This document shows positions 18,550-27,404 of a DNA stretch of 30,145 bases, in pieces. A model generated the notes under the pieces. That model made no database searches and was not told the DNA's origin. It was given only the letters and a program-made list of their open reading frames with translations. Position 1 is the stretch's first letter, and every line of letters starts with the position of its first letter. The stretch is from Clostridia bacterium (GTDB lineage Bacteria; Bacillota; Clostridia; Christensenellales; CAG-314), in assembly GCA_035399325.1 (NCBI GenBank), contig DAOPIV010000001.1:1-30145 (forward strand). Direction: 5' to 3'. Made by a program: the position numbers and the translations under genes.

Positions 18550-19302
18550 TTATTCAGCTATTACTGTATTTTTGATAGAACCTATTTTTTCAATTTTTAT
18601 TTCTATTGTGTCGCCGGGATGAATTTCCCCAACTCCTCGTGGCGTGCCGGTCAATATTACATCACCTTGATTAAGAGTCATAACCTCGCTTACCCATTCT
18701 ATAATGGCTGGAATATCGTTGATTAAATCTCTTGTATTACCGCTTTGCACCACATTGCCGTTAAGCACTGCCTCAACTTGCACATTGCCGGCGTCAATAT
18801 CAGTGACCAAATACGAACCTATCGGGCAAAATGTGTCATATCCTTTTGCTCTCGTCCACTGTCCGTCTTGTTTTTGGAAATTTCTTTCCGAAATATCGTT
18901 TGCGCAAGTATAACCAAAAATATATTCCATTGCGTCTTTTCTTTTCACTTTGTGACATTTTTTGCCGATAACCACTGCCAGTTCCGCTTCGTAATGAAGC
19001 ACACTTGCGGCACTAGGATAAATAATTTTGCCGTCTGGTTCGAGCATTGCGGTAAGCGGTTTCATAAACATAATAGGGCATACGGGCTTGTCGTGTTTCA
19101 TTTCTTCCATATGAGATAGATAATTTACACCCAAAGCCAATATTTTTGTCGGCTCAACAGGACAAAGAAGTTTGTCGATTTTTGTTTCGTTTTCGCTTAC
19201 TTCATATTTGCCGTAAATATCGCCTTTTACCATAAAGTATTTGCCGTCAACAACTTGAAAATATTTAGCTTCACCATTAGCTTCCGCTCTTGCAAAAATC
19301 AT
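18550..19302 (-). CDS. Fumarylacetoacetate hydrolase (FAH) family protein
   Basis: PTKILALGVNY, FMKP, HYEAELAVVIG, GYTCANDISER, QWTRAKGYDTFCPIG, GDVILTGTPRGVG; AGGAG RBS. Confidence 0.93.
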   Translation of the reverse strand: MIFARAEANGEAKYFQVVDGKYFMVKGDIYGKYEVSENETKIDKLLCPVEPTKILALGVNYLSHMEEMKHDKPVCPIMFMKPLTAMLEPDGKIIYPSAASVLHYEAELAVVIGKKCHKVKRKDAMEYIFGYTCANDISERNFQKQDGQWTRAKGYDTFCPIGSYLVTDIDAGNVQVEAVLNGNVVQSGNTRDLINDIPAIIEWVSEVMTLNQGDVILTGTPRGVGEIHPGDTIEIKIEKIGSIKNTVIAE

Positions 19303-19544: not shown

Positions 19545-20120
19545 ATGGGTAAAATGATAAAAACAGACAGACGAGCAAGAAGGACACGTGCTGCGATAAG
19601 CGAAGCTTTTATAAAGCTGCTAAATAAAAAAGAAATTTCAAAAATAACGGTACGGGAAATCACCGAACTGGCTGATATTAACAGAGCGACTTTTTATTTG
19701 CATTACACTGATATTTATCAGGTTTTGGAAGAAATCGAAAACGAGCTTGCATCTGCGTTTTTCGATCTAGCCGATAAATTCGACACAAAAGACCTCATAC
19801 GTGACCCGTATCCGATACTCAAAGCTGTGGGTGACGGCATAGAAGGAAGACCGCTATTTGCAAAATTTATTCTAAACACTGCCACAAGCTCAAATTACTT
19901 TATGAAAATAAAAACAGAATTAAAACGCCGAATAATAGCTATCTACGACACTGAAATGGCGAGCGAGCTTTATTACGCTCTGACCTTTACCATTGCGGGT
20001 ACTCTTGACTCTTATGAAGAATGGTTTGAAAACAATAAACCTATTCCTCTGGAAACCCTTTGCAAAAATATGAGTAAATTTATTGCCGGCGGCGTGAAAT
20101 CTATTATCGGCGAAATTTAA
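19545..20120 (+). CDS. TetR/AcrR-family transcriptional regulator
   Basis: DRRARRTRAAISEAFIKLL, ITVREITELADINRATFYLHY HTH. True start may be ATG 19554 (better spacing from AAGGA). Confidence 0.93.
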   Translation: MGKMIKTDRRARRTRAAISEAFIKLLNKKEISKITVREITELADINRATFYLHYTDIYQVLEEIENELASAFFDLADKFDTKDLIRDPYPILKAVGDGIEGRPLFAKFILNTATSSNYFMKIKTELKRRIIAIYDTEMASELYYALTFTIAGTLDSYEEWFENNKPIPLETLCKNMSKFIAGGVKSIIGEI

Positions 20121-20240: not shown

Positions 20241-21539
20241 TTATTTTATCAAACCAAGTTCGATAGCCTGTTTTCTAAGTTCTTCTCTAAAATCGGGATG
20301 TGCAATAGAAATCATAGCTTCCGCTCTTTGTGCGATATTTTTGCCACGTAGGTTCACCATACCGTATTCCGTCGCAATATATTGAACGTCATTACGATGC
20401 AAGCTCACGACTGCGCCGGGCTTCAACTGCGGTACGATTTTACTGGTGGCTACTCTTACGCCTTCAGCGTTTTTGACCATGGCGGTAGAATACATTACCA
20501 TAAATGATTTTCCGCCCTCTGACCTTTGAGAACCGTATGCTGTGTCTGATTGTCCGCCCGTTCCGCTAAACTGTCTGGAACCTATTGACTCCGAGCAGCA
20601 TTGTCCCGTAAGGTCTATTTCGATAGACGAGTTAACGGAAATTTGGTTGTCAAGCTGAGCGAGAGTGAATACGCTGTTTGTATAGCTTGCTTCTCTAAGC
20701 AAAACATCCGGATTGTGGTCAATAAATTTATTAACTTTTTCCGTACCATCGGTAATAGCCATAACAATCTTACCTGTGTCAACTCCCTTTTTGCTGCCGT
20801 CAACTGCACCGCATAAAGCAAGGTCAACCAAACCTTCGCCTAGTAATTCCGTGTGAATGCCCAAATGTTTTTTTGTACGCAAAAGTCTGGAAACAGCGTT
20901 GGGAATTCCTCCGATACCGATTTGCAGACAATCGCCGTCATTGATTTGGTCAGCGATAAGTTTACCGATAATTTCATCTCGTGGGTCTTCGGGAGCTGTT
21001 GGAATTTCGGGAATTTGGTGATCATATTCGATAACATAATCAACATCGTCAAGAGTAAATTCTGTATCGCCGTATGTGTACGGCATATATTTATTTACTT
21101 CGGCAATAATGATTTTTGATGATTTCATCAAAGTTTTTGAATGTAAAGCTGATAATCCCATCGACATTTTTCCATTTTCGTCGGGGCGTGTTGCCGCCAC
21201 TACAAAAATATCAATATCGCCCGAGGCAAGCATCGCAATGCCAGCACGTGACAAATGCGTCGGAACGTAATAAACTTTCGGGTTAGCAACGCCTCTCGTT
21301 GCTTTTGTCATAAATATTTCGTTGGTGGTGAATGTGGGGTTTGGAACATCCAAAAACGGGAATTTTTCCGCCATACGGCAGCACCAAAAATCAACGTTTT
21401 TTGTTGTGTCGTTGATTTTGTGAAATTGCGACATAAAACCGTAGGGAGTGCATTGACCTTCGCTCACGGCTACTTTGTAATTGTCTTTTACCAAAGCTAT
21501 CGCTTGGTCGATTGTAATAAGTTTATCTTTATAATTCAT
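20241..21539 (-). CDS. Acetyl-CoA hydrolase/transferase family (4-hydroxybutyrate CoA-transferase-like) acyl-CoA transferase
   Basis: AEVNKYMPYTYGD, LQIGIGGIP, HLGIHTELL (catalytic Glu region), SIEIDLTGQ, SGTGGQSD, IATEYG, ISIAHPDFREEL. Confidence 0.92.
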   Translation of the reverse strand: MNYKDKLITIDQAIALVKDNYKVAVSEGQCTPYGFMSQFHKINDTTKNVDFWCCRMAEKFPFLDVPNPTFTTNEIFMTKATRGVANPKVYYVPTHLSRAGIAMLASGDIDIFVVAATRPDENGKMSMGLSALHSKTLMKSSKIIIAEVNKYMPYTYGDTEFTLDDVDYVIEYDHQIPEIPTAPEDPRDEIIGKLIADQINDGDCLQIGIGGIPNAVSRLLRTKKHLGIHTELLGEGLVDLALCGAVDGSKKGVDTGKIVMAITDGTEKVNKFIDHNPDVLLREASYTNSVFTLAQLDNQISVNSSIEIDLTGQCCSESIGSRQFSGTGGQSDTAYGSQRSEGGKSFMVMYSTAMVKNAEGVRVATSKIVPQLKPGAVVSLHRNDVQYIATEYGMVNLRGKNIAQRAEAMISIAHPDFREELRKQAIELGLIK

Positions 21540-21554
21540 AACTACGCTCCTTTT

Positions 21555-22079
21555 TTAGAGATTGTAACCCGCTTCAAACGCTTTTTTGATATTGTCTGCG
21601 CCTTTCTTTCCTTCAAACTGGTGCATCAATGCGTTTAATGCGGTATCCTTTGCCACTACGCCGCCTAGTTTTACAAATGCTCCAAACATAACAATGTTTG
21701 CCGAGCGTGCGCTGCCAAGTTCAAGCGCTATTGTGTTTGCCTTGATATATTTGACTGTTACATCGTCACGATTGACTTTTCTGTCAATCAAGTCGCTGTT
21801 AACCAAAATCAAACCGCCTTTCTCCACTTTGCTTTCAAACTTGTCTAAACTCGGAGTATTCATAACGATGAGTATATTTGGTTTTGTGATAAGCGGTGAT
21901 GCAACGGGTTTATCGCTCAATACTACCGAACAGTTCGCAGTACCGCCACGCATTTCAGGACCATAACTCGGAAGCCATGTTACTTCAAAATTTTGTTCCA
22001 TACCGGCGTAAACCATAAATTTACCCAAAGACAAAATACCTTGTCCGCCGAAACCGGCGCAAATAATTTTACTTTCCAT
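21555..22079 (-). CDS. 2-oxoacid:ferredoxin oxidoreductase gamma subunit
   Basis: AGFGGQGIL, PSYGPEMRGGTANCSV, NIVMFGA; TAATG overlap with the beta subunit. Confidence 0.93.
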   Translation of the reverse strand: MESKIICAGFGGQGILSLGKFMVYAGMEQNFEVTWLPSYGPEMRGGTANCSVVLSDKPVASPLITKPNILIVMNTPSLDKFESKVEKGGLILVNSDLIDRKVNRDDVTVKYIKANTIALELGSARSANIVMFGAFVKLGGVVAKDTALNALMHQFEGKKGADNIKKAFEAGYNL

Positions 22080-22822
22080 TATTTGTCACCTCCGATATCT
22101 TTGTAAACACCAAGCGGATAATTAGCAGCCATTTCGTTTTTCACATGTTGCATAGCATCGGGAGGATTCATACCCCAGTTTGTAGGGCATGCAGCCAAGA
22201 TTTCAACCATAGTGAAACCTTTGCCTGCCATTTGGTATTCGAAAGCTTTTTTGATGGCTTTTTTTGTTTTTAGTATATTCGCATAATCGCATACCATAGT
22301 CCGTTCAATATAAGCAGGTCCGCTTTGTGTAGCAAGCATTTCGCACATTTTTATGGGGTTGCCTTGTTTTTTGACATCTCTTCCAAAGGGGCTTGTGCTT
22401 GTTTTTTGTCCGATCAAAGTAGTAGGTGCCATTTGTCCGCCCGTCATTCCATAAATTGCGTTATTGATGAAAATAACGGTAATGTTTTCGCCTCTTAGTC
22501 CTGCGTGTACGATTTCTGCCAAGCCAATACTTGCCAAATCACCGTCGCCTTGATAGGTGAAAACTATTTTATCTGGATGCACTCTTTTTATACCTGTTGC
22601 CACAGCGGGAGCTCTGCCGTGAGCCGCTTGCTGTGAATCACAGTTGAAGAAATTGTAACTAAATACCGAACATCCGACAGAAGCGACTTCCACAGTTTTG
22701 CTTTGAAGTCCAAGTTCGTCCAAAACTTCGGCAACTAATTTTGTAGCTATACCGTGTGAACAACCGGGGCAGAAGCTCAGAGTTGCGTCGGTAAGCATTT
22801 TTGGTTTAGTCCATTTTGGCAT
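22079..22822 (-). CDS. 2-oxoacid:ferredoxin oxidoreductase beta (TPP-binding) subunit, VOR-like
   Basis: FCPGCSHG, SVGC, AAHGRAPAVATG, YQGDGDLASIG, NNAIYGMTGGQMAPTT, CPTNWG. Confidence 0.93.
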   Translation of the reverse strand: MPKWTKPKMLTDATLSFCPGCSHGIATKLVAEVLDELGLQSKTVEVASVGCSVFSYNFFNCDSQQAAHGRAPAVATGIKRVHPDKIVFTYQGDGDLASIGLAEIVHAGLRGENITVIFINNAIYGMTGGQMAPTTLIGQKTSTSPFGRDVKKQGNPIKMCEMLATQSGPAYIERTMVCDYANILKTKKAIKKAFEYQMAGKGFTMVEILAACPTNWGMNPPDAMQHVKNEMAANYPLGVYKDIGGDK

Positions 22823-23886
22823 TATTTGATTACCTCCATAACTTTTTCGACAATGTCTTCAGGTGACATTACCTCTCCGCCCATACGGCATAACAAGTCG
22901 ATGGGTTTTTTGCCGTTAACAGCAAGTCGAACGTCTTCGTTGTATTGACCTGCGGAAAGCTCGACAGTCAAAAATCTTTTTACGTTTGGTTTATTTGCCA
23001 CTTCTTCAAAAACTTTTGTAGCAAACGGGAAAAGCGTAGTGGGTCTTATTAAACCTACTTTTACTCCCTTTTCTCTTAATATAGGAAGAGCGGATTTGCA
23101 AATACGTCCAACACTGCCGTATGCGGTCAATACTATTTCCGCATCGTCGCAGTCTATAGCTTCACAAATAACTTCTTTCTTTTCGATTTCACGATATTTT
23201 GCTTGAAGACGGTAGTTTTGTTCCAAACATTCTTCGCTCTTTAAGTAAAGACTGTTGACAATGCGTCTTTCGTCGCCGTAATGCGTGCCTGTGGTAGCCC
23301 AGTCAAATTTTTCTGGATCATTGGGCTGTTTCATCGGAGGAAGCTCAACGGGTTCCATCAGCTGTCCCATCATACCGTCGCCCAAAATGAAAACGGGAAT
23401 ACGGTATTGTTCCGCTTTGTCCCATGCCATATACATAAGGTCTACAGCTTCTTGGATAGTAGCGGGAGCGTATACAAGCAATTTGTAATCGCCGTGTCCG
23501 CCGCCTTTGACAGCCTGAGCATAGTCGGACTGAGCCGGTTGGATACCGCCCAAACCCGGACCCGCTCTTACCATATTTACAACAACAGCGGGAACTTCCG
23601 CCATTGCCATATAAGAAATGCCTTCTTGTTTTAGCGAAATTCCGGGACTTGATGAGCTTGTCATAGCTCTGCCGCCGGCACCGCCTGCTCCGTATACCAT
23701 ATTGATAGCGGCAACTTCGCTTTCGGCTTGGACAAAGTCTCCGCCTACTTCAAACAATCTCCACGAAAGATATTCGGGTATTTCTGTTTGCGGAGTAATA
23801 GGATAGCCAAAGAAAAATCTGCATCCGCCACGTACAGCCGCTTCGGCGATAGCTTCGTTTCCTTTCATCAAAACTTTTTTAGTCAT
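22822..23886 (-). CDS. 2-oxoacid:ferredoxin oxidoreductase alpha subunit, 3-methyl-2-oxobutanoate dehydrogenase (VorB)-like
   Basis: LMKGNEAIAEAA, GYPITPQTE, QAESEVAAINM, TSSSSPGISLKQE, RAGPGLGGIQPAQSDY, KGGGHGDY. Start at ATG 23886 after GGAGG. Confidence 0.92.
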   Translation of the reverse strand: MTKKVLMKGNEAIAEAAVRGGCRFFFGYPITPQTEIPEYLSWRLFEVGGDFVQAESEVAAINMVYGAGGAGGRAMTSSSSPGISLKQEGISYMAMAEVPAVVVNMVRAGPGLGGIQPAQSDYAQAVKGGGHGDYKLLVYAPATIQEAVDLMYMAWDKAEQYRIPVFILGDGMMGQLMEPVELPPMKQPNDPEKFDWATTGTHYGDERRIVNSLYLKSEECLEQNYRLQAKYREIEKKEVICEAIDCDDAEIVLTAYGSVGRICKSALPILREKGVKVGLIRPTTLFPFATKVFEEVANKPNVKRFLTVELSAGQYNEDVRLAVNGKKPIDLLCRMGGEVMSPEDIVEKVMEVIK

Positions 23887-23888
23887 AC

Positions 23889-24086
23889 CTATTTTACCTC
23901 CAAAACACTGTCGGGACAAATGTAAGCGCACGCAGCGCAAGCGATACATTGCTCTTCGTCTATACATTCAACCGCAAAATATCCGCCTCTGTTGCTTTTT
24001 GCTCCCATTTTCAAGATTTTTTTCGGGCAAGCCGTAACGCATAATCCGCATCCCTTGCACTTTTCAAAATCGATTTGAACTTTCAT
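23889..24086 (-). CDS. 2x[4Fe-4S] ferredoxin-type delta subunit
   Basis: CKGCGLCVTACP and CIACAACAYICPD; start at ATG 24086 after GAGGAG overlapping the ilvE stop. Confidence 0.92.
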   Translation of the reverse strand: MKVQIDFEKCKGCGLCVTACPKKILKMGAKSNRGGYFAVECIDEEQCIACAACAYICPDSVLEVK

Positions 24087-24097
24087 TTGATTTCTCC

Positions 24098-25153
24098 TCA
24101 ATCTATAATGGTTAACCAGTCGTATTTGTCAGGATACTTTCTCGTCTGTATTCCACGCAAACGATCATAAGCTGTTTTTGCAACGGGTCCCACTTTATTG
24201 TTGTTAATAACATACTCTTCGCCTTTGTAGCCGATAACGCCAACCGGCGAAACAGTAGCAGCTGTGCCAACGCCGAACATTTCCGTAAGTCTGCCTTCCT
24301 TTGCAGCCTTTATTATATCATCCACAGCAAAATGTCCTTCGTTTACCGTATAGCCTTCGTCACGCAATATTTTTATGATAGAGTGGCGTGTGATACCACG
24401 CAAAATGCTTCCGTCAAGCTCGGGTGTGCAAACAACTCCGTCCATAACAAACATAACGTTCATTGTGCCTACTTCTTCTATATATTTATGCTCTTCAGCG
24501 TCAAGCCACAAAACCTGGTCGAAACCTTGTTGAGCCGACTCGTACTGAGCAAGCAATCCAGCCGCATAGTTACCCATACATTTAGCTTCGCCAGTACCGC
24601 CTTTTGCCGCTCTAACGTATTTGTCTTCGATATATATACGTGCCGTTTCTTCAGATCCGTGCAAGTATGCGCCGACAGGCGACATAACGATAAACAATTT
24701 GTACTCTCTTGAAACATGGACGCCTAAAGCCACCTCGGATGCAATCATTGTTGGACGCAAATACAAAGCTGTGTTCGGCAGTGTGGGCACCCAGTCTTTT
24801 TCGAGTTTTATCATTTCGATAAGAGCTTCCAAAACGACGTTTTCATCAAACTGAGGCATACACATACGGTATGCGCTGCGGTTCATACGTTTGAAATTGT
24901 CCATAATGCGGAACAAAGTAACCTCGCCCTTGTCATTGCGGAAAGCTTTGCAGCCTTCAAAAATACCTTGACCGTAATGCAGACACATTGTCATCGGAGA
25001 CATGTCAAAATTGCTGTATGGTCTTATTACGGGTTCGCCCCATGCTCCGTTAGCATAATCCATCTCCAACAAGTAGTCGGTATGAAGTTTTCCGAAACCC
25101 AACTTAGAGAAATCGGGCTTTTTTTGCAACTTGTCAGCCTTAATAATTTTCAT
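24098..25153 (-). CDS. ilvE: Branched-chain amino acid aminotransferase (class IV PLP)
   Basis: CLHYGQGIFEGCKAFR, LYLRPTMI, GTGEAKCMGNY (PLP Lys), QVLWLD, EEVGTMN, ILRGITRHS, FGVGTAATVSP. Confidence 0.96.
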   Translation of the reverse strand: MKIIKADKLQKKPDFSKLGFGKLHTDYLLEMDYANGAWGEPVIRPYSNFDMSPMTMCLHYGQGIFEGCKAFRNDKGEVTLFRIMDNFKRMNRSAYRMCMPQFDENVVLEALIEMIKLEKDWVPTLPNTALYLRPTMIASEVALGVHVSREYKLFIVMSPVGAYLHGSEETARIYIEDKYVRAAKGGTGEAKCMGNYAAGLLAQYESAQQGFDQVLWLDAEEHKYIEEVGTMNVMFVMDGVVCTPELDGSILRGITRHSIIKILRDEGYTVNEGHFAVDDIIKAAKEGRLTEMFGVGTAATVSPVGVIGYKGEEYVINNNKVGPVAKTAYDRLRGIQTRKYPDKYDWLTIID

Positions 25154-25246
25154 ATCAGATGTGAAACCTCCACTCTTAATAAATGTAAATATTTTTCGCC
25201 GTTGTTTTTTTTACTTAAAAACGCTTTTTTTCTCGCACAAAACCAC

Positions 25247-25271
25247 AAAAAAAACTACTCTTTACGAGTAG
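25247..25271 (-). terminator. Intrinsic terminator in the ilvE leader (candidate attenuator)
   Basis: Minus strand CTACTC-GTAAA-GAGTAG followed by eight T; about 95 nt upstream of the ilvE ATG. Confidence 0.75.
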
Positions 25272-25277
25272 ATAGTC

Positions 25278-25376
25278 TTAACCCTTATTGTTTGGCAAAA
25301 TAATCTTTCCTGTCACCAAAATCAGCGGAAAGATTATAGAAAATAAAAGCATCAAAATAAAAAGACCCAACGTCAT
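25278..25376 (-). CDS. Unannotated 32-aa Leu/Ile-rich ORF MTLGLFILMLLFSIIFPLILVTGKIILPNNKG (candidate leader peptide of the ilvE-vor operon)
   Basis: GAGGT RBS 6 nt before ATG, directly downstream of a TTGACA/TACCAT promoter; 8 Leu, 6 Ile, 1 Val; followed by a terminator. Confidence 0.65.
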   Translation of the reverse strand: MTLGLFILMLLFSIIFPLILVTGKIILPNNKG

Positions 25377-25394
25377 TTTTTTACCTCGTCTATT

Positions 25395-25423
25395 ATGGTA
25401 TACCAATATTTTTAGTTTGTCAA
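25395..25423 (-). promoter_or_regulatory. Promoter of the leader ORF / ilvE-vor operon
   Basis: TTGACA-17 nt-TACCAT. Confidence 0.8.
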
Positions 25424-25472
25424 TAGACCAAAATGCTTTTTCTTGCCGAATTAAATAAAGCTATTTTTAGTC

Positions 25473-25501
25473 TTGCAATTTTTGTATTTTTGTGCAATAA
25501 T
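25473..25501 (+). promoter_or_regulatory. Promoter of the DUF885-like gene
   Basis: TTGCAA-17 nt-AATAAT with extended TG. Confidence 0.55.
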
Positions 25502-25586
25502 AGCTGAATATATATAGCTTAAGCAATTTTTTAATTTATAATAAAAAATCAATTTTTAGATAATATTTTAATATAAGGAGATTTAT

Positions 25587-27404
25587 ATGAAACAAAAACG
25601 GATTCGGTTACTGTCGCTTTTACTTGTAGCCGTTATGCTTTGCTCGGTAGCCTTGTTCTCAGGCTGCGAAGTGAAAGTTCCCATCACAGAAGAAGATTTT
25701 AATGAATTTTTAAACAATTTGTTTATTGAAAGCGTAACATCAAACACGATAACGCTTCACTACACATTGAAAGACCCGTCTGCTTACGGAATAGAAGATT
25801 TTGAGCCGACGATATATGACCTATCTATGGATGACATAGACGCATATTATCAAGACCTTCAAGATACTTGGCAATATCTTATTTCACTGAGCGACCGCAA
25901 TCTTACTCAAGAGCAAAAGTATATTTTAAAAATGCTCATTAAGTATTACGAATTAAATATTTCCGCCGAAGGACTTGATTACTACGGAACGTATCTCGAC
26001 AGCATAAGCGGCTTGCCCTCCAATATGCCCATAAACTTTGCGGAATACAAATTTTACACCGAAAAAGACGTGCAGGACTATTTAGCATTGTTAAACCAAT
26101 TCCCCACCCTTTTTGAACAGGCATTGGATTACGAAAGAACCCGTATTGAAATGGGGCTTGGGCTGTCCGACAGCACGCTTGACACGGTAATACAGCAATG
26201 CAACGATTTTATTTCTCACATTGACGACAACTACCTAATACTTACTTTCGACAGAAGAATAGATAATCTTGGTTTGTCCAGCGAATTGACAGCCGAATAC
26301 AAAGAACAAAACTATCAAGCTTTCACAACAAAGGTCGTACCAGCATATGAAAATATGGCGGTATCTTTGGAAGAATTCAAAGGTCAATGTGTAAATGACA
26401 AAGGTCTTTGCTATTTTGAAAGAGGAACGGATTATTACCAATATTTGACTTCTTATTACACAGGCACGGATTATACATTAGACGAACTCGTTGATATGTG
26501 TACGGAAAATCTTGTGAAATACAAAAACCAGTTTATAGGCTTATACACAAAAAATCCTACATTATTTGACAAAGTTTTTGACGCTTCGACTTATGGAATA
26601 GACCCCACTACTTATGAAGACAAGGATCGCCCTGAAGCAGCTGTCGTGTTGGAAGCGCTTTGCACTGATATACTCAGCGACCTGCAAATAAAAATGCTGG
26701 ATTATGTTCCCGCTTTATCAGACAGCAGTTTTTCAATATATTTTGTAGAAGAATCTTTGGAAGACTCTTTGTCTCCAGCATTCTATATGATTCCGCCTAT
26801 TGACGACTATAAAAACAATACAATATACGTAAATCTCGGTTCTGTTGATAGTTTAGGTTTGTATTCCACTCTTGCACACGAAGGATACCCGGGACATCTT
26901 TATCAGACGGTATACTTCAACGATACGAACCCGAATCCTATTCGCAACGTTGTGCAGTTTGACGGTTATGTTGAGGGTTGGGCAGTATATATGGAAAATT
27001 ATTCCTACGTTATGTATGACTTTGGTACAAACAACGAAACTATAACCTCAATGGCTTACAGCTATTCTATAATGGCACTGCTTCTTTATAGCCGTGTTGA
27101 CTTAGGTGTAAATTATCAAGGTTGGACAGTTAGCGATACACAAAATTATATCAACGCTTTGGGACTAAACGGAGATATTGCCCAAGACATTATGGATATG
27201 GTTATCTCATCGCCCGCAACATATCTTAAATATTCAATAGGTTATTTGGAAATGATACGGCTTCAAAATTATGCCAAAAAAGAACTTGGCTCATTATTTG
27301 ATATGGTAGAATTTAATACCGTTATTCTTGACATCGGTCCTATGCAATTTAGTATTGTAGAAGAAGCGGTACAGGCATATATCGACTCAAAATTGGCATC
27401 TTAA
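25587..27404 (+). CDS. DUF885-like lipoprotein, putative metallopeptidase-like protein
   Basis: Signal peptide with lipobox VALFSGC; PAFYMIPP, TLAHEGYPGHLYQ, YVEGWAVYME, YLKYSIGYLE motifs; AAGGAG RBS. Confidence 0.8.
   Translation: MKQKRIRLLSLLLVAVMLCSVALFSGCEVKVPITEEDFNEFLNNLFIESVTSNTITLHYTLKDPSAYGIEDFEPTIYDLSMDDIDAYYQDLQDTWQYLISLSDRNLTQEQKYILKMLIKYYELNISAEGLDYYGTYLDSISGLPSNMPINFAEYKFYTEKDVQDYLALLNQFPTLFEQALDYERTRIEMGLGLSDSTLDTVIQQCNDFISHIDDNYLILTFDRRIDNLGLSSELTAEYKEQNYQAFTTKVVPAYENMAVSLEEFKGQCVNDKGLCYFERGTDYYQYLTSYYTGTDYTLDELVDMCTENLVKYKNQFIGLYTKNPTLFDKVFDASTYGIDPTTYEDKDRPEAAVVLEALCTDILSDLQIKMLDYVPALSDSSFSIYFVEESLEDSLSPAFYMIPPIDDYKNNTIYVNLGSVDSLGLYSTLAHEGYPGHLYQTVYFNDTNPNPIRNVVQFDGYVEGWAVYMENYSYVMYDFGTNNETITSMAYSYSIMALLLYSRVDLGVNYQGWTVSDTQNYINALGLNGDIAQDIMDMVISSPATYLKYSIGYLEMIRLQNYAKKELGSLFDMVEFNTVILDIGPMQFSIVEEAVQAYIDSKLAS

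Follow-up and report, generated by a model that had tools for sequence, protein, structure and literature searches.

A conserved leader with a short open reading frame and an intrinsic terminator precedes the ilvE-ferredoxin-VOR operon of an uncultured member of the Clostridia

Results

Positions 1 to 30,145 of contig DAOPIV010000001.1 (assembly GCA_035399325.1), hereafter the window, come from a 1.1-Mb metagenome-assembled genome, 73% complete, of an uncultured member of the Clostridia found in activated sludge or wastewater. The window includes an operon that starts with ilvE, coding for a branched-chain aminotransferase, and continues with genes for a ferredoxin, the subunits of a VOR-type 2-oxoacid:ferredoxin oxidoreductase and a coenzyme A (CoA) transferase (ilvE-fd-vorABG-CoA transferase). 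A 434-nt gap separates ilvE (24098-25153, minus strand) from a divergent gene coding for a DUF885 lipoprotein (25587-27404, plus strand), and the minus strand of this gap carries the subject of this report, a leader with a promoter, a Shine-Dalgarno (SD) sequence, a 32-codon upstream open reading frame (uORF) and a terminator hairpin followed by a U-tract. The comparisons described below support the view that this stretch is a conserved 5′ leader of the operon and not a chance open reading frame (ORF), and it is likely a translated cis-regulatory leader. An earlier note made from the DNA letters had described the promoter, the sequence GAGGT, the 32-codon ORF with its 15 leucine, isoleucine or valine (L/I/V) codons and tandem codon pairs, and the hairpin with eight U residues; all of them are present on the minus strand where it had placed them.

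The leader promoter, which matches the consensus at 10 of 12 positions, consists of the −35 hexamer TTGACA (25418-25423) and, after a spacer of 17 nt, the −10 hexamer TACCAT (25395-25400). The −35 hexamer is identical in the three other species of the genus of the window (g1), represented by loci L002, L067 and L004, and TATTGAC(A/T) is also found at −35 in three other genera, g5, g9 and g16. The −10 hexamer lies inside a perfect 10-bp palindrome, TGGTATACCA (25396-25405), which is kept in all four species of the genus and may act as operator of a DNA-binding repressor; g5, too, has a near-palindromic −10 region. The SD sequence GAGGT (25383-25387) is located about 12 nt downstream of the predicted transcription start and 8 nt upstream of the ATG of the uORF (25376), within a region, GCGAGGTAAAAAAATG, that is kept in L002, L067 and L004. 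The uORF encompasses nucleotides 25376 to 25278 including its TAA stop codon (25280-25278), is open in the four species of the genus despite indels, and specifies 8 Leu, 6 Ile, 1 Val and 3 Phe residues, so that L/I/V make up 15 of 32. Six nucleotides downstream of the stop codon begins the stem of the terminator hairpin, CUACUC-GUAAA-GAGUAG (25255-25271; 6 bp, three of them G-C, loop of 5 nt, −6.7 kcal/mol), which is followed by a U8 tract (25247-25254) that is invariant in the genus. The remaining 93 nt up to ilvE (25154-25246) include no promoter-like site, even at a relaxed threshold of 8/12, in agreement with the earlier note, which had seen no second promoter there. A promoter search found no antisense promoter facing the uORF.

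Two further helices are predicted in the transcript. Helix P1 (25353-25388), present in both the minimum free energy and the centroid structures, pairs the SD sequence and the adjacent A-tract (25378-25388) with the U-rich codons 5-8 of the uORF (25353-25363) and is thereby predicted to sequester the SD sequence; both of its strands are almost invariant, even in L004. Hairpin P2 (25300-25337) lies inside the uORF, has 11-bp arms (25327-25337 and 25300-25310) and is followed by UUUUG, with which it forms a candidate RNA polymerase pause signal. L004 retains the P2 core, CUUUCC/GGAAAG, with a single A-U pair replaced by G-C, even though the 3′ arm is read there in a different frame.

Of the four species that represent genus g1, L004 is the most distant (IlvE 86% identical), and the conservation figures that follow were obtained by comparing the window with L002 and L067. 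The 179 nt from the −35 hexamer through the U-tract are 96-97% identical, and the last 73 nt of the leader show no changes at all. By comparison, the DNA upstream of the −35 hexamer is 79% identical, the 93-nt spacer shows 62-63% identity and indels, and ilvE shows 87% nucleotide identity (13% differ), with 32-34% of its third codon positions changed. Only 2 of the 33 third positions are changed in the uORF (binomial P = 2.6e-4 against the ilvE rate), and the peptide substitutions between species are hydrophobic for hydrophobic (L/F, L/I, L/M). L004 retains the promoter, TGGTATACCA, GCGAGGTAAAAAAATG, a 24-nt U-rich block (codons 6-12), the core of the internal hairpin, the terminator hairpin with one G-U pair, and the U8 tract, and its uORF is still open despite indels that shift the frame across part of it. 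The frozen synonymous sites and the frame change in L004 therefore indicate a constraint on the nucleic acid, on its translation as such, or both, rather than on the peptide. The leader module is real and more than a chance ORF.

Some additional variation was seen around the leader. At positions 25364, 25389 and 25390, contigs of the DNA run X1, which is probably the source sample, show variants of the L002/L067 type; thus, several strains of the genus coexist in that sludge. In L002 and L067 a promoter-like sequence, TTAAAA-18-TATAAT, is found downstream of the terminator at −55 with respect to ilvE; the window has it in disrupted form, and L004 not at all. The SD sequence of ilvE, GGAGG, is 13 nt from the ATG, which is unusually far compared with the 6-10 nt of other genera, and is located in the loop of a small conserved hairpin (25154-25175, minus strand) with the stem UGUG/CACA in L002, L067 and L004, and GUG/CAC in the window.

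Scans of genome and metagenome contigs with IlvE for further close relatives gave only the same three genus-level variants. The gene order ilvE-fd-vorABG-CoA transferase is the same in six genera of the family (g1, g5, g9, g14, g16 and g18), and a leader terminator was found ahead of the operon in five of them, g1, g5, g9, g16 and g14, in the latter in two species (g14a; loci L056 and L058). The leaders of these five genera share a TATTGAC-type promoter and homologous terminator arms, G(G/A)CUA(C/U)C ... G(G/A)UAG, followed by a U-run. Their ORFs have 16-39 codons and are unrelated in sequence, and each of them ends at the terminator: the gap between stop codon and stem is 6 nt in the window, 11 nt in L004, 1 nt in g16 and 4 nt in g5 and in both g14a species, and the stop codon of g9 is inside the 3′ arm. 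Genus g5 (L062) has two tandem copies of the terminator, a repeat of about 27 nt that lies some 50-125 nt upstream of ilvE; its uORF runs across the first copy and meets two in-frame TAA codons immediately ahead of the second. The sequence GAGGTA is found upstream of the uORF ATG in g1, g9 and g14a. As no promoter-like site was found behind the terminator in the window, L004, L056 and L058, the downstream operon depends by position on terminator read-through; the 33-35 nt between terminator and ilvE in g14a leave no room for a promoter, so that ilvE must be reached by read-through.

The sixth genus, g18 (L054 and L065), has a shorter leader with no uORF and no U-tract terminator, in which a GGAACA...UGUUCC hairpin abuts the ilvE SD sequence, an arrangement that may provide translational control. 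In other families of the order ilvE occurs without VOR, mostly close behind a same-strand ORF of at least 80 codons (L010, L012, L017, L018, L023 and most of L091-L114), which in L010 codes for a UPF0029 (YigZ/IMPACT-like) protein. Used as a negative control, 24 loci from these other families showed no leader terminator (0/24).

The earlier note had cautioned that U-rich DNA inflates the number of Leu and Ile codons. This is correct: the uORF has a T content of 44%, and composition-matched open shuffles already give 10.4 ± 2.6 L/I/V codons, which makes the 15 observed a marginal excess (P = 0.057). The excess is clearer for Leu and Ile together, with 14 observed versus 7.5 ± 2.3 in composition-matched shuffles (P = 0.005). 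When one leader per genus was pooled the L/I/V enrichment over composition had P = 0.014-0.077, and P = 0.002-0.024 when Met was added post hoc. No run of more than two identical residues is present in the uORF peptide, and the codon bias is by itself weak evidence. A genome-wide scan, on the other hand, identified the ilvE leader as the sole site in the genome at which an SD-bearing ORF ends at a leader hairpin.

The effect of a stalled ribosome was modeled as a 30-nt unpaired mask placed at every A-site codon of six leaders, followed by partition-function folding with the terminator-stem probability as readout. In the window the terminator stem had a probability of 0.83-0.99 at all stalls (A-site codons 2-32), and the mean stem-pair probability was 0.41-0.48 with the ribosome on the stop codon. 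The g9 and g14a leaders behaved in a related way, with terminator probabilities of at least 0.66 at all stalls short of the stop codon, and stem probabilities of 0.01-0.07 (g14a) and 0.00 (g9) when the last codons or the stop codon were masked. Masked folding gave no classical antiterminator at any stall position in the window, g9 or g14a; L004 alone gave an alternative. A pairing of the 2:3 type in the window, between the 3′ arm of P2 and the sequence preceding the terminator, was also considered and discarded as too weak, since it amounts to 1.1 kcal/mol and removes two of the six stem pairs.

The operon downstream of the leader is as the earlier note had described it, and all its genes are on the minus strand. 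IlvE matches PF01063 and NF009897 (426 bits, cut-off 307). The rest of the operon (20241-24101) includes genes for a 2x[4Fe-4S] ferredoxin (23889-24101), a VOR alpha-type subunit (22822-23967; 521 bits with the NCBIfam VorB model NF005507, cut-off 399), the thiamine pyrophosphate-binding beta subunit (22079-22822) and the gamma subunit (21555-22079) of the 2-oxoacid:ferredoxin oxidoreductase and, as last gene, a CoA transferase of the butyryl-CoA:acetate type (20241-21539). No regulator gene is conserved beside the operon. A TetR-family gene (19545-20120, plus strand) runs convergently toward the operon end and divergently from an FAA-hydrolase-family gene (18550-19302, minus strand); it probably controls the latter and not the ilvE operon. 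No T-box was found at the ilvE leader, although T-boxes were detected elsewhere in the same genome. Rfam searches gave no match at the gathering score in the whole window and nothing credible at E ≤ 10 on nucleotides 25100-25600; the best scores near the leader were 15-23 bits, compared with thresholds of 44-49.

To place the operon in its metabolic context, five genomes of the family were inspected (G000, G003, G018, G007 and G011, three of them 95% complete). Neither the ketol-acid reductoisomerase (KARI) IlvC (KARI_C, PF01450) nor LeuA (LeuA_dimer, PF08502) was found in any of the five, by means of models that match 14 of 14 control genomes, and CodY (PF06018) was not found in them either; ILVD_EDD is present in three of the five. 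These organisms thus appear unable to make branched-chain amino acids (BCAA) de novo and appear to be devoid of the usual Firmicute BCAA sensor; the missing KARI and LeuA suggest either BCAA auxotrophy or salvage from branched acids. The operon may run in the catabolic direction, from BCAA to branched short-chain acids, and its gene content fits both this and the salvage direction. The earlier note had contrasted the leader with T-boxes and CodY as the usual means of controlling ilv genes in Firmicutes. In the family neither was found, CodY in the five genomes nor a T-box at the locus, but as a general rule the statement was too strong, since Staphylococcus aureus has a Leu-rich attenuator peptide (PMC5794164).

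Discussion

The reading that we favor, to which we assign a probability of about 0.4, is that the stretch is a transcription-attenuating leader in which a ribosome that finishes the uORF occludes the terminator, so that the operon is turned on when the amino acid is available. Transcription would start at the TTGACA/TACCAT promoter, and the first 140 nt of the transcript would comprise the SD sequence, the uORF and a weak terminator; as ilvE has no promoter of its own, it would be expressed only by read-through. A ribosome close behind RNA polymerase at the end of the uORF would cover the 5′ arm of the terminator, because the stop codon is 6 nt upstream of the stem, and would block formation of the 6-bp hairpin, permitting the polymerase to continue. 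A lagging ribosome would leave the hairpin free to form, and transcription would stop. Two causes for such a lag can be envisaged, namely a shortage of charged tRNA at the 14 Leu/Ile codons, and the locking of the SD sequence in helix P1. As a consequence of the short gap, the geometry predicts the inverse of the classical logic, with completed translation leading to read-through, and the operon would be on when Leu and Ile are plentiful and off when they are scarce, as would suit an organism that ferments amino acids and is unable to make these two itself. This scheme supposes that the uORF is translated, that ribosome and polymerase are coupled, with the P2 hairpin and its U-run as a pause that may synchronise them, that the Leu/Ile supply is the signal, and that the operon runs in the catabolic direction. 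The complete picture is a mirror-image attenuator in which only fast and uninterrupted translation of a Leu/Ile-rich uORF, with charged tRNA-Leu/Ile in good supply, masks a weak intrinsic terminator and so activates a ferredoxin-linked operon for BCAA fermentation, an arrangement that would keep the auxotrophic cell from consuming amino acids that it is unable to make; in this complete form we consider it rather doubtful.

The earlier note had proposed that BCAA supply is sensed by translation of the leader. The part of this proposal that stands is a translated cis-regulatory leader, which is likely; the SD sequence and start codon are kept in four species, synonymous sites are nearly frozen and the layout recurs. 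The BCAA specificity of the leader is weakly supported, in view of the single Val codon, the lack of rare codons and the composition of the g14a uORFs. The earlier note had also suggested a test of whether relatives keep an uORF with high L/I/V content and poor sequence identity together with a terminator. A short ORF with an unrelated peptide and a terminator does occur in five genera, but the g14a uORFs are not rich in L/I/V, and four g14 species and g18 do not fit the pattern.

A number of observations weigh against terminator occlusion driven by Leu/Ile supply. Regarding the codons, those for Leu and Ile are spread over codons 3-27, occur only in pairs and are accompanied by one Val; none of the uORF codons is rare, the Leu and Ile codons used being the commonest of the genome; the g14a uORFs show no L/I/V enrichment; and the amino-acid bias may be a by-product of RNA structure, because the U-rich Leu/Ile/Phe codons form the strand predicted to pair with the SD sequence and A-tract. 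Regarding the position of the ORF, an ORF ends beside the leader hairpin by chance in 0.04-0.33 of shuffled leaders, the genome-wide scan (about 31 candidates) found 8 further leader-hairpin sites at which an ORF with no SD sequence ends, and the A-rich sequence upstream of terminators favors TAA there. Neither g5 nor g16 has an SD sequence ahead of its uORF, and the ATG is 8-9 nt downstream of the −10 hexamer, so that translation there would have to be near-leaderless; a convincing uORF is missing from four other g14 species and a leader terminator from g18, and L002 and L067 have the candidate second promoter at −55. In L004, with its gap of 11 nt, the hairpin remains intact (0.84) when the ribosome masks the stop codon. 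Transcription and translation appear to be loosely coupled in some Firmicutes. The pathway could also run in reverse, from branched acid through acyl-CoA and keto acid to BCAA, in which case a starvation-on logic would be expected and a response to plenty would be wrong. Besides DNA runs, only one metatranscriptome with related sequence was found; its contigs cover ilvE and fd sparsely and the leader not at all, which makes it uninformative.

The interpretation of the earlier note, that the layout is that of a classical ilv/leu attenuator, is unlikely. A ribosome stalled at Leu/Ile codons would then free a segment that pairs with the 5′ arm of the terminator, and BCAA starvation would turn the operon on. 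The only candidate for such a pairing is between the SD region (ACGAG/GCGAG), freed from P1 by a stall on codons 5-8, and CUCGU/CUCGC at the end of the 5′ arm, an unusual topology. It has a certain appeal: in L004 stalls at codons 5-14 lower the masked terminator probability to 0.06-0.41, by way of GGCGAG:CUCGCU at the junction of 5′ arm and loop, the duplexes of SD region and 5′ arm (−6.8 kcal/mol in the window, −10.3 in L004, −8.2 in L056 and −11.8 in L058) are stronger than those of shuffled SD regions with P = 0.03-0.16 each, one pairing position varies compatibly in the four species (A-U, G-U, G-U, G-C), P1 is conserved at the nucleotide level, and starvation-on control would be logical if, as the missing KARI and LeuA may indicate, the pathway is anabolic. 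Yet the terminator persists at every stall short of the stop codon in the window (minimum 0.83), g9 and g14a (at least 0.66). The alternative helix is 5 bp long, spans a ribosome-containing loop of over 100 nt and uses an SD sequence that a second ribosome would occupy, and the supposed regulatory codons are unfocused, being scattered over codons 3-27. Moreover, a gap of 1-11 nt between stop codon and stem means that a coupled ribosome would block the terminator even when it does not stall, which leaves nothing to be regulated; real examples have about 50 nt between stop codon and terminator, 52 nt in S. aureus ilvD as compared with 6 nt here (PMC5794164).

Two other explanations dispense with the uORF as a sensor. 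One of them is an attenuator that works independently of it, in which a protein or small ligand binds the conserved leader RNA (P1, P2 or the GACUAUC motif ahead of the stem), or a repressor binds TGGTATACCA, the ORF being a tolerated by-product of U-rich RNA. This would account for the nucleotide-level constraint including synonymous sites, for the shift of frame of the L004 peptide over the 3′ arm of P2 with the helix kept, for the uORFs of g5 and g16 that have no SD sequence and the four g14 species that have hairpins and no uORF, for the recurrence of A(A)G(G/A)CUAUC at the start of the terminator in g1, g5 and g16, and for the palindrome conserved in the genus. We nevertheless regard it as improbable, as no Rfam family comes near its threshold, no conserved regulator gene lies beside the operon, where the TetR gene is merely convergent with its end, and the conserved SD sequence and ATG, the open ORF in g1, g9 and g14a and the stop codon that is always at the terminator would be left unexplained. 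The other, also raised by the earlier note, is an independent gene for a small single-pass membrane protein, perhaps resembling a type I toxin, that has a promoter of its own and a terminator that leaks. As judged by eye, residues 3-21 form a hydrophobic stretch of 19 residues with a basic tail behind it; in L004 the stretch has 18 residues and is more polar, again with a basic tail; the hydrophobic-for-hydrophobic substitutions and the strong SD sequence and promoter also agree with a membrane peptide. On the other hand, an exhaustive phmmer search against 1.84 billion cluster representatives matched only the peptide itself, whose own cluster has one member, and peptides at the same position in sister genera are unrelated, those of g14a being basic and not hydrophobic. 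Frozen synonymous sites are not needed for peptide function, no convincing promoter is left for ilvE, so that the terminator is not a simple gene end, and no antisense promoter faces the ORF. These features argue against a membrane peptide as the main function, which we consider quite unlikely.

Translation-dependent occlusion of a terminator operates in the E. coli pyrBI and rph-pyrE attenuators, with UTP-dependent polymerase pausing as signal. A study that also treats pyrBI found that moving the stop from a position 28 bp to one 5 bp upstream of the E. coli terminator tR2 reduced termination from about 90% to less than 10% in a translation-dependent manner, and that, with 5-6 bp between stop codon and terminator behind it, the translating ribosome represses that terminator (PMC4824070). 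In the Firmicute Streptococcus gallolyticus, read-through at pil1 is high when the stop codon of the leader peptide is 4 bp before the hairpin or inside it and low when it is 39-49 bp upstream, the signal being a phase-variable number of repeats (PMC3894217). The ilvE leaders resemble pil1 and pil3 (PMC3894217) as well as tR2 (PMC4824070) in that the ORF ends a few nucleotides before or inside an intrinsic terminator, and the spacings found here (1-11 nt or inside) agree with those at which pil1 (4 bp or inside) and tR2 (5-6 bp) are "on". They differ from pil1 and pyr in the signal, which is presumed here to be either the supply of tRNA charged for the codons of the uORF or the opening of helix P1 at the SD sequence.

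In the E. coli tryptophanase operon the nascent peptide TnaC senses free tryptophan, and what it blocks is Rho and not an intrinsic terminator. The ilvE leader would resemble it in that abundance of an amino acid turns on an operon for its catabolism through a leader peptide, with the ribosome proposed to be at the uORF stop codon; unlike in TnaC, no conserved C-terminal peptide motif is present beyond a Pro-Asn pair shared with L004. With the leader-peptide attenuators of BCAA operons (E. coli ilvGMEDA, ilvBN and leu; Lactococcus leu-ilv; S. aureus ilvD, PMC5794164; the Corynebacterium ilvBNC uORF, PMC10272879) it shares a promoter-proximal SD sequence, a Leu/Ile-enriched ORF of about 26-32 codons, an intrinsic terminator and a BCAA-related operon. 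It differs from them in having the stop codon 6 nt from the terminator instead of about 50 nt (52 nt in S. aureus ilvD, which has an antiterminator and a Leu-rich attenuator peptide; PMC5794164), in the lack of a mutually exclusive antiterminator, in scattered Leu/Ile codons that never form runs longer than two, and in genes (ilvE, ferredoxin-dependent keto-acid oxidoreductase and CoA transferase) that are not those of ilv/leu biosynthesis; its logic, too, is predicted to be inverted. The leaderless polycysteine uORF attenuators of mycobacteria (bioRxiv 10.1101/834739) are reported to be likewise short codon-enriched uORFs at the 5′ ends of operon transcripts that respond to an amino acid, and the near-leaderless geometry of g5 and g16 would fit them; they differ in phylum and amino acid, and the uORF of the window has a canonical SD sequence.

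Attenuation by a leader peptide is textbook material for biosynthetic operons, in which starvation means on. The same parts wired inversely on a catabolic amino-acid operon were not found described in the literature searched. Should the uORF be irrelevant, the leader would still be a strongly conserved attenuator of a VOR operon. If terminator occlusion is true, it would extend the occlusion principle of pil1 and pyrBI to nutrient sensing. The stretch is a compact part of 180 nt. It would also show how small-genome anaerobes, in which neither CodY nor genes for de novo BCAA synthesis were found, choose between Leu and Ile for protein and for fermentation: provided that the operon ferments BCAA to branched short-chain acids, control by charged tRNA that is on when the amino acids are plentiful would protect an essential nutrient.

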